DNA of 53,356 nucleotides from Nitrospirota bacterium (GTDB lineage Bacteria; Nitrospirota; Thermodesulfovibrionia; Thermodesulfovibrionales; SM23-35). Location: positions 1 to 53,356 of the forward strand of contig JACAEY010000068.1 of NCBI GenBank assembly GCA_013388605.1, given 5' to 3'. The first letter of the stretch is position 1; the number at the start of each line of letters is the position of its first letter. A program made the position numbers and the translations under genes. This document shows, in pieces, positions 1,849-13,071 of the stretch. A model generated the notes under the pieces. It did no database searches and was not told the DNA's origin. It saw only the letters and a program-made list of their open reading frames with translations.

Positions 1849-3657
1849 CTAAACCTGAACAGTCCTTTTCGAGGTCACTTCCTGAATGAGTGCATCTATC
1901 TCACTGCCTTCGATGGTTTCTTTTTCAAGCAGAGTCTTTGCCAGAGTCTCAAGAAGGTCAAGATTTTCTGTAATAAGTTTCTTAGATGTATTGTATGCCT
2001 CAATCACAATCCTTTTAACCTCTTCATCTATCTCAATTGCTGTCTTTTCACTGTAATCCTTGTGCCTTGCTATCTCTTTCCCAAGAAATATATGCTCATC
2101 CTTTTTCCCGAATGTGAGGGGACCAAGTCTTTCAGACATTCCCCATTCAGTTACCATCTTTCTTGCAAGCTCTGTTGCCCGCTCAAGGTCATTACCAGCC
2201 CCTGTTGTCATATGCTTAAGGGCTATTTCTTCTGCTGCCCTTCCTCCAAGCAGTACACTAAGTGCCTTCATAAGATAGTCCCTGGAATAGGTATATCTGT
2301 CATCCATCGGTAACTGCTGTGTAACTCCGAGTGACATTCCTCTGGGTATGATACTTACCTTATGAATTGGATCAGTCCCGGGCGTTAGCTTTGCCACAAG
2401 TGCATGTCCTGCCTCATGGTATGCGGTGTTCTTTTTTTCTGTCTCACTTATAATCATGCTCTTTCTTTCTACACCCATCAACACTTTGTCTTTTGCAAAT
2501 TCGAAATCAGACATCTCAACCTTTGTTTTTGATTTTCTTGCTGCAAGAAGTGCTGCTTCATTAACAAGATTTGCAAGGTCAGCCCCTGAAAACCCAGGGG
2601 TTCCACGTGCTATCTGCTCTAGATTAACTTTTTCATCAAGTGGGATATTTCTTGTATGAACTTTAAGTATCTCAAGGCGTCCTTTTACATCTGGCTGGGG
2701 AACTACCACCTGCCTGTCAAACCTACCAGGTCTTAGGAGCGCTGGGTCAAGGACGTCAGGTCTGTTTGTTGCAGCAATGATTATGATTCCTTGGTTGGTC
2801 TCAAAGCCGTCCATCTCAACAAGGAGTTGGTTCAAAGTCTGTTCCCTTTCGTCATGTCCTCCACCAAGACCAGCACCTCTATGACGACCAACAGCATCAA
2901 GCTCATCAATAAAAATAATACATGGTGCGTTCTTCTTTGCCTGGTCAAAAAGGTCTCTAACTCTTGAGGCTCCAACCCCCACAAAGAGCTCAACAAAATC
3001 AGAGCCTGATATTGAAAAGAAGGGAACACCAGCCTCCCCCGCTATTGCCCTTGCAAGAAGTGTCTTCCCGGTACCCGGTGCACCCACCAAAAGTACACCT
3101 TTTGGAATCTTACCCCCGAGTTTCTGGAACTTTTGAGGTGCTTTGAGAAAATCGATAATTTCCTGAACCTCAGCCTTAGCTTCTTCAATTCCAGCAACAT
3201 CTGAAAAAGTTACCTTTACAGACTTTTCAGATGCCAATCGTGCTTTTGCCTTGCCAAAGGATAAAGCCCTATTTCCACCAGTCTGCATCTGACGCATAAA
3301 GAATATCCATATAACTGCGAGTAAAATGATCGGACCCCATGAGAAAAATAGATTCCAGTACCATGGATTCTGTTCAGTTGGCTTTACTGTAATCTTTACA
3401 TTTTGAGAACGTAAAATCTTTATGAGATCAGGATATTCAGGCACATGTGTCCTGAACTTCTTCCCATCTTTGAATTGCCCTGTTATATTGTTCTCTTTTA
3501 TAATGACATTTTCAACTTCACTATTCTCGAGTCGCGACATAAAATCAGAGAATATTATCTCTTCTCCTGTCTTCTTGGGGACGTTGACAAGATTAAAAAG
3601 AACAATGATCATTGCACCGATAAGGAGCCAAACTAATAAGCTTCTATATATATTCAA
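1849..3657 (-). CDS. ftsH: ATP-dependent zinc metalloprotease FtsH
   Basis: 602 aa with N-terminal TM segments, AAA Walker [12 protein letters not shown], and the zinc site HEAGHALV. Confidence 0.97.
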
Positions 3658-3689: not shown

Positions 3690-4427
3690 CTAAAGACTAA
3701 CCATAACTCCACTTAGCTCTATTATTCCTTTCTGAATCTTTATAAGAGTATTAATACCCTCTTCAGCAAGACTGATGAGAGAATTTAATGTACCTTTTGA
3801 AAAAGGTGAACCTTCTGCTGTACCTTGAATTTCTACAAATCTACCACTACCGGTCATTACAACATTCATATCCACTGAGGCTATAGAATCTTCTAAATAG
3901 CATAGATCAAGTCTTGGTTCGCCATTTATAATTCCTACGCTTATTGCAGCTAAATAGTCTTTGAGTGGCGTCTTTTCTATAAGCCCATTTCTCAGAGCAT
4001 ATCTCAGAGCATCGGCAAGAGATATGAAAGACCCTGTTATCGCTGCTGTTCTTGTTCCTCCATCTGCTTGTATTACATCACAGTCTATCCATATTGTTCT
4101 CTCGCCAATACCTGATAGATCAACAACAGACCTGAGTGAACGTCCTATAAGTCTCTGTATTTCATGAGTCCTTCCTGTAATCTTACCTGTTGTAGATTCC
4201 CTTATAATTCTCGTTGAAGTTGCTCTCGGAAGCATCGAATATTCTGCTGTTATCCATCCCTTTTTCTGATCTTTCAGAAAAGGCGGAACTTTGTCCTCTA
4301 TTGTTGCTGTACATATCACCCTTGTGTTTCCCATTTCTATCATAACCGAACCTTCAGCAGTCTTTATAAAGTTTCTGTGTATCCTCACCTCGCGCATCTC
4401 GTTATTCTTTCTTCCATCTGGTCTCAT
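3690..4427 (-). CDS. rph: ribonuclease PH
   Basis: 245 aa. [14 protein letters not shown]..., [12 protein letters not shown] and the overall length are typical of RNase PH. Confidence 0.95.
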
Positions 4428-7040: not shown

Positions 7041-7181
7041 ACCCGAATTACGCAAGGCTCACTATAAAACCTTTGTAGCCGCAGGCTTTAGCCTGCGTTT
7101 TAAATCTCATAAAAGTGGTTTAAAGGTTGTATAAATCCACGCAACCTAAAGGTTGCGGCTACACCCTTGCATAATACGGGT
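7041..7181. repeat. MITE-like palindromic element, copy A
   Basis: About 140 nt, roughly 97% identical (4 mismatches in the core by eye) to the reverse complement of 16405..16545. Imperfect terminal inverted repeats are acccgaattacgcaagg and ccttgcataatacgggt. Two related subterminal hairpins are gtagccgcaggctttagcctgcg and cgcaacctaaaggttgcggctac. Confidence 0.8.
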
Positions 7182-7302
7182 TAAACTATCAATTAAAGGT
7201 ACACTAAGTATTGATCCCGATCTGATCGGGATTCACAGTCTTTATTATATTAATGCATTTTTAGGGTTAAGGACTTTAAGATTTTAAGAGAAAAATTCAA
7301 TA

Positions 7303-7648
7303 TGGTGGAGGCGGCGGGAATTGAACCCGCGTCCGAAAGTATGACCACCCAAATTTCTACATGTTTATTCTGCTTTTTCATCTCGGATAATGAACTGCCA
7401 GCAGAAGGGCTTTTCATTATCCAATCTCCATATTTCTTGCTTTAAGGAAAGGAGAAAATCCTTAAAGCCAGCCTGCTACCGACACTATCTCCAAGACACA
7501 GGCAATCTCGAAGTAGTGTGCTGCTTCAATTAAGCAGCGAGTGCCAGTTCGTTGTTGGCGCTTGTATATGTTTCCGCTTTTTTACGTGGTGACGGAGCCA
7601 CGACATGCTTTCTGAGCTTCATAACCTCCGTCGAGCCCTGTCGCCCCC
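7303..7648 (-). ncRNA. ssrA: tmRNA (SsrA), tag peptide (A)ANNELALAA
   Basis: The 5' end is GGGGGCGACAGGGCTCGACGG and the 3' end is GGACGCGGGTTCAATTCCCGCCGCCTCCACCA. The 7-bp acceptor stem has G3:U and is followed by an encoded CCA. The tag reading frame GCC AAC AAC GAA CTG GCA CTC GCT GCT TAA lies at 7559..7530. Total length is 346 nt. Confidence 0.93.
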
Positions 7649-8072
7649 TTTCTATTTCTCTCCTTGCTTCTCTTTCCTTTATAGCCTCTCTTTTCTCAAA
7701 GAGTCTTTTACCCTTAGCAAGACCTATCTCGAGTTTTGCTAATGAACCCTTAAAATATATTTTGAGTGGAATAAGGGTAAAACCTTTTTCAGCTGTCTTT
7801 CCCCTAAGTCTGTCTATCTCTTTCCTGTGTAGAAGGAGCTTTCGGGTCCTCAAAGGCTCATGATTCATGGTATTTGCATGACTGTAATGTCCAATATGAC
7901 AGTTAATAAGAAAAGCTTCATTTTTTTTAAAACCAACATAACTATCTTTTAGATTAGCCTTACCCTCCCTGAGAGATTTTACTTCTGTACCTAAAAGGGA
8001 AATACCAGCTTCGTATGTCTCCTGAATATGGTAATCATGATATGCCTTTCTATTTTGGCATACTATTTTCAT
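7530..8072 (-). CDS. smpB: SsrA-binding protein SmpB (ORF as it stands runs into ssrA)
   Basis: The SmpB core and basic tail are present ([46 protein letters not shown]). There is no in-frame stop before 7530, so the last 39 codons lie inside the tmRNA gene. The true C-terminus is uncertain. Confidence 0.85.
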
Positions 8073-8115
8073 TTTTTTATTTTACCATAAAAGCTATATG
8101 CCTTCCATTACCACC

Positions 8116-11103: not shown

Positions 11104-12033
11104 ATGTTTGCTAAAAGAATAATTCCTTGTCTTGATGTAAAAGATGGTCGTGTTGTTAAAGGTGTAAGCTTTGTCAATCTGAGGGATGCAGGAGATCCTG
11201 TTGAAAATGCAAAGTTCTATGATGAGCAGGGAGCTGATGAGCTGATATTTTTAGATATTACCGCCTCTCATGAAAAGAGAAAGATAATTTTAGATGTTGT
11301 TATGAAGACAGCTGAAGAGGTTTTCATGCCCCTTACAGTTGGAGGAGGCATAAGAACACTTAATGATATAAGAGACCTTCTAAAGTCAGGATGCGACAAA
11401 GTCTCAATTAATACAGCTGCAGTGAAAGATCCATATTTTATAGCCAGAGCAGCAGAGAAATTTGGAACTCAGTGCATTGTGGTCGCAATTGATGCAAAAA
11501 GGACATATGGAAGTTTGCCTGATGCTACTGGTGAAAAGTGGTTTGATGACAAGGAGCTTAAAGAGGTCTGTCTAAAAATTCCCGAAAGAATACCCTATAA
11601 CCCTCCTCTGCATTCCCCCTTAGCAAGAGTGGATACAGATGGGTTAAAGATGGGAAGGGAGGATTTATCTGAGATTGAGAGGGGGGTATGGGCTATTTCA
11701 ACACATGGTGGTAGAAGAATTAAACTCATAGATGCTATTAAATGGGCAAAAAAAATAGAACAACTCGGAGCAGGTGAGATCATGCTAACAAGCATGGATA
11801 AAGATGGAACTAAAGATGGATATGATATTGAATTAACAAAAGCTGTCTCTGAGGCTGTAAGAATTCCTGTCATTGCCTCAGGTGGTGCAGGAAAACTTGA
11901 GCATTTATACGAAGCCCTCAAATATGGAAAGGCAGATGCGGTCCTTGCAGCATCTATATTTCATTACAGAGAATATACAATCAGAGAAGCAAAAGAATAT
12001 CTTAAATCAAGAGGGATTTCAGTCAGGTTATAA
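11104..12033 (+). CDS. hisF: imidazole glycerol phosphate synthase cyclase subunit HisF, with internal insertion
   Basis: 309 aa with [31 protein letters not shown] and [14 protein letters not shown] motifs. About 55 extra residues sit between AIDAKR and STHGG. Confidence 0.92.
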
Positions 12034-13071
12034 AAAGGATGATTTGATCCATTTCTTTGTTTTAGATGAGTTCTTTGCATGAGCTTTTAGTTCAATTCTT
12101 AGGTTTTCAATTATTTCATTAGTTGCAGGTGGAACCTTTAATACAAACCTATCATCTCCCTTTTTAATAGATACATCAACTTCAGAAAGGTTCTTTGCAT
12201 CAGAGTATCTAGCGCAGAGAGAAGCTGCAACTCTTAAAGCTTCATCTGTAACATCACCAAGTAATAATGCAGTCGGGCTTCCATATCCCTCAACCGTTAC
12301 AAGACAGCCATGATCTGATAAAGAACATATTTCCTCATTTTCATCCTTATCTCTTCCTATGATAATCTTACATGATGGAGAATATCTGAAATGTCTTCCT
12401 ATTCTCAAAAGCCTAATGTCTTCGAGATTTGACCCAGAGTTATAAGTAAAAAGGTCCTTCAGCCTGTATACATAATTAGGTTCTGTTAAAAGACACCCCC
12501 CTGCAGGTGCAGGATATTCTTTAAGAACAAATTCTTTAGCAAGTCTCATCTGAGGCTTTCTTGAACTACCCCTAAAGTCAAAGAGCATATCTCTGTCGAC
12601 AATTCCTCTAACTTCAGGAATGGTGATCCTCAAAAGTTTTGCACTTAATGGTCTCAGGACATAATCTTTTACTCCTGCCTCTTTGTCTATACAATAGAGG
12701 ATGTTTTTTCTCTGGCTCATGGGTCTCTGTCCAAGTACCTCCCCTGAAATAATAAAATCGGCCATAATGTCTTCCATAAAAGCCTTTGCTTCTTTTAACA
12801 TCAGTATCCTGCAATCAATACATGGGTTCATATTTTTCCCATATCCAAATTTGGGTTTTTTAACAATTTCTATAAATTTTTCTGAAAGGTCGATAAGTTT
12901 GACCTCAAAACCAAATTTCTCTGCAATAAGAAATAGAACTTCTAAAGAGAAAGTGTGTTCAAAGGGTGTGAGGAATTTTAATGCCTTTACCTCTATATTT
13001 TGTTTAAGAATTATAAGGATCGAGAGGGTGCTATCAAGACCATCTGAAAATAATGCCACTGCTTTTGCCAT
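12028..13071 (-). CDS. PP-loop ATP pyrophosphatase family protein (ThiI/MnmA-like, putative tRNA thiolation enzyme)
   Basis: 347 aa. The N-terminal motif ALFSDGLDS is a variant of SGGx[16 protein letters not shown]...[13 protein letters not shown] resembles thiouridine synthase families. The exact family is not resolved. Confidence 0.6.

Follow-up and report, generated by a model that had tools for sequence, protein, structure and literature searches.

What happens to an smpB message that has no stop codon of its own and runs directly into ssrA, the tmRNA gene, is the question raised by a locus of an uncultivated Nitrospirota bacterium (contig JACAEY010000068.1, GCA_013388605.1). The whole stretch of DNA analysed, 53,356 nt, is referred to below as the window. 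The ORF listing gave a single minus-strand ORF of 180 aa at 7530..8072 (-), which family models identified as SmpB, with the match confined to residues 2-142 in both Pfam and NCBIfam. Pfam PF01668 scored 207.4 bits against a cut-off of 27 (1.1e-61), and the NCBIfam equivalogs (TIGR00086 / PRK05422) scored 212.5 and 194.2 bits against cut-offs of 130 and 119 (2.3e-63). The canonical-homologous part, comprising the beta-barrel core and most of the basic C-terminal tail, was delimited by Pfam/NCBIfam and dN/dS to codons 1-141 (7650..8072, minus strand). On the same strand, both ARAGORN and Rfam RF00023 placed a one-piece tmRNA of 346 nt at 7303..7648 (-). RF00023 was matched full-length (model 1-374) at 205.8 bits, with a gathering score of 47 (E=3.6e-84). 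This tmRNA has the acceptor stem (GGGGGCG/CGCCUCC with G3:U) and the T-arm, its tag ORF runs from a resume codon to a stop, and its CCA end is encoded.

The two genes overlapped by 119 nt on the same strand. The original prediction held that smpB lacks its own stop and crosses the tmRNA 5' end at 7648, and the coordinates of the ORF agreed with those of ARAGORN and Rfam on this point; as also predicted, smpB was seen in the sequence to continue 119 nt into ssrA, to share the frame of the tag and to terminate at the tag UAA. Codon 142 (AGG, Arg; 7647..7649, minus strand) straddles tmRNA +1, with its A at position -1 and its GG at +1 and +2, and the sequence together with the 5' end placed by ARAGORN and Rfam predicts an RNase P site between 7649 and 7648. 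This codon is followed by 38 further sense codons and a stop that lie wholly within the tmRNA (7530..7646, minus strand) and in the tag frame. Past R142 the ORF continues as tmRNA-encoded GRQGST..., there are zero stops before tmRNA +1, and the canonical tail end of the order (R-A-M-K-S-R, then an own stop codon) is absent. The ORF terminates at the tag UAA (7532-7530). The tag reading frame, from the resume codon GCC to this UAA, was assigned by ARAGORN to tmRNA nt 90-119 (7530..7559, minus strand) and encodes ANNELALAA*; the C-terminus of the 180-aa ORF is identical to the organism's own tmRNA tag.

The nearest proteins and loci came from uncultivated Nitrospirota / Thermodesulfovibrionales, in which the gene order glycosyltransferase, UDP-glucose dehydrogenase, smpB, ssrA, amidase, Germane-domain protein and glutamate racemase is kept. 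Across 80 species-representative genomes, smpB was nearly always directly upstream of ssrA, and the spacer after the canonical smpB stop measured 1 to ~600 nt (median ~60 nt). The SmpB of canonical relatives has 146-150 aa and ends ...EREAKREIERAMKSR*. Compared with these relatives, the window has lost the last ~5 smpB codons (..AMKSR, ~15 nt), the stop codon and the entire spacer. A sequencing or assembly indel that deleted a genuine smpB stop codon would find its sole support in the general error rate of metagenome assemblies, and we consider it extremely improbable. A one-base error is ruled out because some five codons, the stop codon and the whole spacer are all missing. Moreover, the exact 180-aa protein of the window recurs in separate Logan assemblies, and the fusion was found in at least 15 independent assemblies or contigs of related Thermodesulfovibrionales, from different projects (ENA, JGI, NCBI and Logan), which share the junction at 74-96% identity. 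An indel restoring an smpB stop upstream of 7648, named by the original prediction as its possible undoing, is contradicted by these same contigs.

Four junction types were observed among the fused loci. The window type, ..EIE-A/GGGGGCGA (the slash standing at tmRNA +1), was also found in L012 (a GTDB genome), P0001/L081, P0003/L082/L083/L089, L087, L088 and L090. The second type, ..EIARAM-C/GG (P0005/L084-86 and P0006), joins the tmRNA three codons later in the same frame, a difference of 9 nt between the two frame-0 types. The other two, ..ARAIK/GGG in L032 and ..ERVVK/GGG in L091, lie in another frame; they add nine extra residues and stop at a UGA, tmRNA nt 28-30. The corresponding UGA of the window (7619..7621, minus strand), located from the sequence and these relatives, would serve as a stop after a +1 shift. 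In all four types, SmpB-homologous codons abut tmRNA +1 exactly, with zero leftover spacer. A metagenome pattern scan (tmRNA start at most 34 nt from an IKE[KR]E motif), which is not a census, yielded three contigs including L090 and L091, and a protein search with the tmRNA-encoded extension returned only 7 short ORFs within tmRNA genes, missing the known fused proteins. Public gene callers have placed short ORFs (26-68 aa, P0121-P0127) in the tag frame inside the tmRNA genes of relatives.

Because most relatives keep a normal smpB stop 1-600 nt upstream of the tmRNA, the fusion is, judged from these loci, lineage-specific but recurrent. Some relatives are nearly fused, with a gap between smpB stop and tmRNA +1 of 1 nt (L016, L022) or 10-15 nt (L029, L077, L068); in these five, RNase P cleavage would leave the stop at the extreme 3' end of the message, which would come near to a tmRNA substrate.

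The origin of the fusions was assessed with a UGDH+SmpB tree (300 bootstraps) and an independent tmRNA tree, both of them neighbour-joining trees of short sequences. In the UGDH+SmpB tree, monophyly of the window-type fusions was recovered in 0/300 bootstraps; unfused L020 nested with the window group (86%), and unfused L044 grouped with L012/L082 (81%). The tmRNA tree joined the window to L020 (94%) and L032 to unfused L062 (100%). The spacer of L020 (..CATTACGGnAnGTC/GGGGG) is homologous to the spacers of L001 and L003, which argues that the spacer is ancestral and the fusions recurrent. A single origin of the window-type junction was rejected on the bootstrap result, the concordant tmRNA tree and this spacer homology. 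The four junction types beside unfused sisters suggest that stop codon and spacer have been lost repeatedly, and we conclude from the sequence comparison that at least four independent losses, probably more, took place; recombination of the smpB-ssrA locus between lineages may alternatively account for the tree pattern. As to how the deletions arose, a 6-nt repeat, GGGCGA, shared by the smpB R-A-M codons and the tmRNA 5' end was considered and rejected, as a deletion through it leaves 3/5 of the acceptor-stem G's. At most, GGG microhomology fits as the deletion mechanism.

Compared with the other fused lineages, the smpB core gave dN/dS values of 0.05-0.10, with dS reaching ~2. By this measure the gene is under strong purifying selection; it is therefore taken to be functional, and the fused state to be old and compatible with function. 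In the SmpB alignment, G121-K-R-L-F125-E-K-R128 was invariant and shows the basic-tail pattern in which G-K-[KR] is followed by an aromatic residue and then by [DE]-K-R (E. coli G132, H136, D137KR), the E. coli SmpB number being the window number + 11. The encoded SmpB 1-141 thus keeps the equivalents of G132, an aromatic residue at 136 and K138/R139 in E. coli numbering. It is cut at E. coli-equivalent residue 152/153 and lacks the equivalents of I154-M155 in E. coli SmpB. The roles of the tail residues G132, H136 and D137KR are described in PMC3895274 and PMC4151336. According to the former, E. coli SmpB truncated after residue 153 suffers only a ~fourfold loss of GTPase activation and keeps partial activity; with larger tail truncations, in vivo tagging is reported to be lost altogether (PMC4151336). 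Read in frame 0, the acceptor strand of the tmRNA gives GRKGS, and this aligns with the AMKSR/AMKGK at the end of canonical tails. An AlphaFold2 model of the 180-aa protein, from a 20-sequence alignment, reached a mean pLDDT of 49, with the tail and extension below 50.

What the fused lineages conserve is that no stop precedes tmRNA +1, and the endpoint within the tmRNA varies: the tag stop, nt 39-41, nt ~64-66, an inserted hairpin and frame-1 nt 28-30 were all seen. In five lineages (window, P0001, P0003/L012, P0005 and P0006), no stop interrupts the frame before the tag stop. The ALAA ending was lost in L088, where CGTTAA brings a stop after ..SPR (163 aa), in L087, where a hairpin insertion in PK1 gives 169 aa, and in L090/P0131/P0132, where CAG has become TAG (154 aa) in sequences >96% identical to L082; L032 and L091 are fused in another frame. 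The comparison of relatives called for by the original prediction thus bore out a missing stop common to the fused lineages, and did not bear out frame identity with the tag. The L087 insertion (~40 nt) separates CACCACG from the GCGG strand at about nt 60-105 of the tmRNA (locus ~1460-1505) and forms a perfect 12-bp hairpin, CTCCAAAAAGTC-GGAT-GACTTTTTGGAG; the L087 tmRNA is no longer called by ARAGORN, and its contig ends soon after.

Among unfused tmRNAs of the same geometry, the tag frame was open from +1 to the tag stop in 28/38 (74%), compared with 35/72 over all tmRNAs, and the other two frames of the same-geometry set had stops at nt 28 and nt 65. Given a fusion, the chance of a tag-frame read to the tag stop is therefore ~1/3 (frame) x 0.74 = ~0.25, and the few percent originally estimated was too low. 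What is improbable is losing the stop codon and spacer, not ending on the tag stop. Across the six frame-0 lineages, the variable sites at the three codon positions numbered 5/7/8 in the overlap and 28/24/102 in the smpB core; because the third-position bias is absent, the overlap is, to judge from these sites, evolving as RNA. The nt-39 UAG variant occurs in unfused tmRNAs too. Selection for an open tag frame was considered and rejected, the closed fraction being alike in fused (3/~7-10) and unfused (10/38) tmRNAs. These comparisons indicate that the tag-stop ending is an unselected by-product, and the free variation of the endpoint argues that the read-through product, or at least its C-terminus, is not seen by selection.

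These data bear directly on the possibility that a hard-wired degron is what selection has favoured, with a 180-aa SmpB ending in ANNELALAA whose free level ClpXP-type proteases would keep low. The five lineages open to the tag stop, the in-frame 9-nt difference between the two frame-0 junctions and the alignment of GRKGS with the canonical tail end are what this explanation would expect. However, the ALAA ending has been lost by three different routes in L088 (CGTTAA), L087 (hairpin insertion) and L090/P0131/P0132 (CAG to TAG), L032 and L091 are fused in another frame, the overlap shows no third-position bias, and the tag frame is open anyway in 74% of same-geometry unfused tmRNAs. We consider a selected degron very unlikely, and the encoded ALAA degron of the original prediction's second scenario is not supported as a conserved or selected feature.

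The promoter architecture was then considered. An extended -10 element, TGGTAAAAT, lies at 8079..8087 (-) and is the sole TGnTAnnnT between 7290 and 8200 on the minus strand; its last T is 7 nt upstream of the smpB ATG, and no Shine-Dalgarno sequence precedes this ATG in the window. In 63/83 distinct Thermodesulfovibrionales loci, 4-10 nt separate the end of an extended -10 (TGnTAnnnT) from the smpB start codon; these loci differ in their upstream gene and have no Shine-Dalgarno sequence. The element occupies the same place in L081, L087, L088, L020, L032, L062, L016 and others. Because the element is so near the ATG, is kept in 63/83 loci and is not accompanied by a Shine-Dalgarno sequence, it suggests a leaderless smpB-ssrA transcript starting at or beside the first base of the ATG; across the order Thermodesulfovibrionales, smpB mRNAs appear to be leaderless. 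A second extended -10 was sought in the last 30 nt before tmRNA +1 and was found 3-16 nt upstream of +1 in at least 16/62 unfused relatives (L009, L037, L049, L013, L077, L007, L010, L057, L058 and others; e.g. TGTTATAAT), where it resembles a promoter dedicated to ssrA, from which the pre-tmRNA would have a very short leader. Just upstream of the tmRNA, this element was absent in the window and in the fusion-bearing sub-clade (L020, L044, L001/3, L066, L062).

The terminator scan found no terminator between smpB and ssrA in the window. Generic sigma-70 and terminator scanning gave matches no commoner than in shuffled sequence and missed the extended -10 box. A weak sigma-70-like site within smpB, at 7781..7754, belongs to a class no commoner than in shuffled sequence and may be an ssrA promoter. 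On the 3' side of the tmRNA, three short inverted repeats lie at ~7225-7246, 7139-7154 and 7080-7097, and no hairpin followed by a T-run was found on the minus strand of window 7080-7250. Neither an independent ssrA promoter nor an smpB terminator, which the original prediction had counted in combination as evidence against itself, was detected by the sequence scans of the locus. Because no separate ssrA promoter or terminator was found, the pre-tmRNA appears to have the smpB mRNA as its 5' leader. We infer that, in loci whose ssrA lacks a separate promoter, the stop codon is the only element contained in the spacer.

The 5' end of tmRNA is processed by RNase P (PMC3985003). We lean towards the explanation that this maturation makes the smpB mRNA non-stop, so that SmpB synthesis becomes a substrate of the system that SmpB itself serves. 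According to this model, smpB and ssrA would be co-transcribed from one promoter, RNase P would cut between 7649 and 7648, and every cut would leave a stop-less smpB message ending ...GAA-A, 1 nt past codon 141. Ribosomes would stall at the message 3' end after Glu141, giving a non-stop complex that is a substrate of tmRNA-SmpB; nascent SmpB would receive the ANNELALAA tag, and the smpB mRNA would be discarded. SmpB output would then fall when trans-translation capacity is high, and would possibly rise when capacity is limiting. Since RNase P needs the acceptor stem, cutting would have to wait for the 3' strand, 340 nt downstream, and early ribosomes would cross the junction before cleavage. 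In the window lineage these ribosomes would stop at the tag UAA, because the fusion is in the tag frame and this frame is open in most related tmRNAs, and would produce the 180-aa SmpB ..ALAA. The logic of the two scenarios of the original prediction, a non-stop mRNA if the transcript is cleaved and SmpB ..ALAA if it is not, holds for this sequence; the ALAA ending of the second is not conserved. Completion of a stop codon by 3' adenylation, as in mitochondrial tRNA punctuation, was considered and rejected, as the cleaved ends ..GAA A, ..AUG C and ..AUA AAA cannot become UAA.

Several points weigh against the self-targeting model. In the window lineage both routes would give ssrA-tagged SmpB; stable SmpB would therefore require that some chains are released untagged, that proteolysis is incomplete, or that tmRNA or the ribosome protects the protein. 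The site at 7781..7754 could be an ssrA promoter. SmpB 1-141 lacks the I154-M155 equivalents, and a released 141-aa SmpB may not be fully active. Finally, the recurrence of the fusion could reflect mutational ease and tolerance without regulatory benefit. The last point leads to a rival which we regard as rather unlikely, namely neutral compaction, in which the stop codon and spacer are dispensable in a co-transcribed unit, functional SmpB is made mainly by ribosomes that translate the unprocessed precursor and end at any stop present within the tmRNA, and the non-stop message is tolerated waste without feedback. It accords with the free variation of the ORF endpoints (tag stop, nt 39-41, ~64-66, hairpin, frame-1 nt 28-30), with early stops that are neither rarer nor commoner than in unfused tmRNAs (10/38 closed), and with spacers that are already short in the order (median ~60 nt, minimum 1 nt). 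The R-A codons (AGG GCN) also share GGG with tmRNA +1..+3, which makes the deletion ends ambiguous and possibly microhomology-driven. However, RNase P cleavage would still create a non-stop smpB mRNA, the read-through product of the window bears its own ssrA tag and should be destabilised, and four junction types that abut +1 exactly are unexpected of random deletions.

A more far-reaching version of the self-targeting model, which we think improbable, would have the mature C-terminus of SmpB in the fused lineages always templated by tmRNA, by read-through in cis or by self-tagging in trans. One leaderless transcript would then yield one tmRNA and self-limited SmpB, a 1:1 stoichiometry would be hard-wired, and the fusions would have recurred because such coupling was selected. 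As a variant, slippage on the obligatory G5 run at the junction may give a second, degron-free isoform, ..GG(D/E)RARRxL, like that of the frame-1 lineages.

The neighbourhood of the locus holds further genes of interest. FtsH at 1849-3657 (-) and RNase PH at 3690-4427 (-) are encoded on the strand of ssrA, a few kb downstream of it. In E. coli, ssrA-tagged proteins are among the substrates of the FtsH protease, and RNase PH acts as a 3' exonuclease when the ends of tRNA/tmRNA mature; the nearness of the two genes to ssrA may be coincidental synteny. In a protein encoded at 12028-13071 (-), a ThiI-like PP-loop region is joined to an NFACT-R_2 RNA-binding domain (PF18297, 1.9e-22); other links of the NFACT family are to ribosome quality control.

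An smpB/ssrA overlap is already known from Carsonella ruddii (Mao et al. 2009, cited in Hudson, Lau & Williams 2014, PMC4131195), where tmRNA maturation is predicted to make the smpB mRNA a non-stop substrate of its own product and so to create feedback. The original prediction had taken the idea of a non-stop smpB mRNA with self-feedback to be undescribed, and in this respect it was anticipated. As presented in PMC4131195, the Carsonella locus involves the same two genes in the same orientation, with the smpB CDS extending beyond tmRNA +1; unlike the window, it belongs to an extremely reduced endosymbiont, the overlap occurs in only half of the strains, and neither the central loop nor any of the C-terminal tail is left in its SmpB, whereas the window SmpB keeps most of the tail. 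The same paper reports no overlap beyond Carsonella among ~2000 genomes in 2014. Unlike Carsonella, the Nitrospirota concerned are free-living, their SmpB has a dN/dS of ~0.06, the fusion has several origins, and some lineages read in the tag frame to the tag stop. Within a limited search of the published literature, an smpB/ssrA overlap was not found for Nitrospirota or any free-living bacterium. The overlap leading to a non-stop smpB mRNA, together with the feedback idea, is thus known; what is new here is its presence in free-living hosts with an intact, constrained system, its recurrent origin, the putative single-promoter link and the incidental read to the tag stop.

Other systems share parts of this arrangement. 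E. coli ArfA is made from a truncated non-stop mRNA, cleaved by RNase III or terminated (Garza-Sanchez 2011 and Chadani 2011, reviewed in PMC8012679). By inference, smpB would resemble it as the gene of a rescue factor whose mRNA is stop-less after processing and whose yield is governed by trans-translation. ArfA, however, is a backup factor that is turned on when tmRNA fails, whereas SmpB is a component of the primary system, and the nuclease would be RNase P acting on tmRNA structure here in place of RNase III acting on a hairpin. Helicobacter ftsW/tRNA-Ile, listed in Table 4 of PMC4131195, is a same-orientation CDS running into a tRNA gene, for which a non-stop mRNA is expected. Unlike such CDS/tRNA overlaps, the partner in the window is the rescue RNA itself, and the overlap includes its messenger part. 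Canonical smpB-ssrA loci (E. coli and most Thermodesulfovibrionales) have the same order and orientation and orthologous tmRNA and SmpB, and the upstream extended -10 box of the window is common to the canonical Thermodesulfovibrionales relatives. They differ from the window in their ..AMKSR* end, their spacer of 1-600 nt and, in some clades, a putative dedicated extended -10 ssrA promoter.

In current annotation, fused ORFs of 180-183 aa are called 'SsrA-binding protein' although their last 38 codons are tmRNA, and the overlap has gone unnoticed. The degenerate SmpB of Carsonella allows the self-feedback proposal made there to be dismissed as genome decay. Repeated fusion in free-living bacteria, whose SmpB is highly constrained and whose tmRNA is intact, is compatible with a fully working rescue system. 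The locus is small (~800 bp) and could be transplanted into E. coli. It offers a natural test of whether trans-translation sets the level of its own protein component, of how RNase P processing and translation would compete on one transcript, and of how far the end of the SmpB tail is dispensable.
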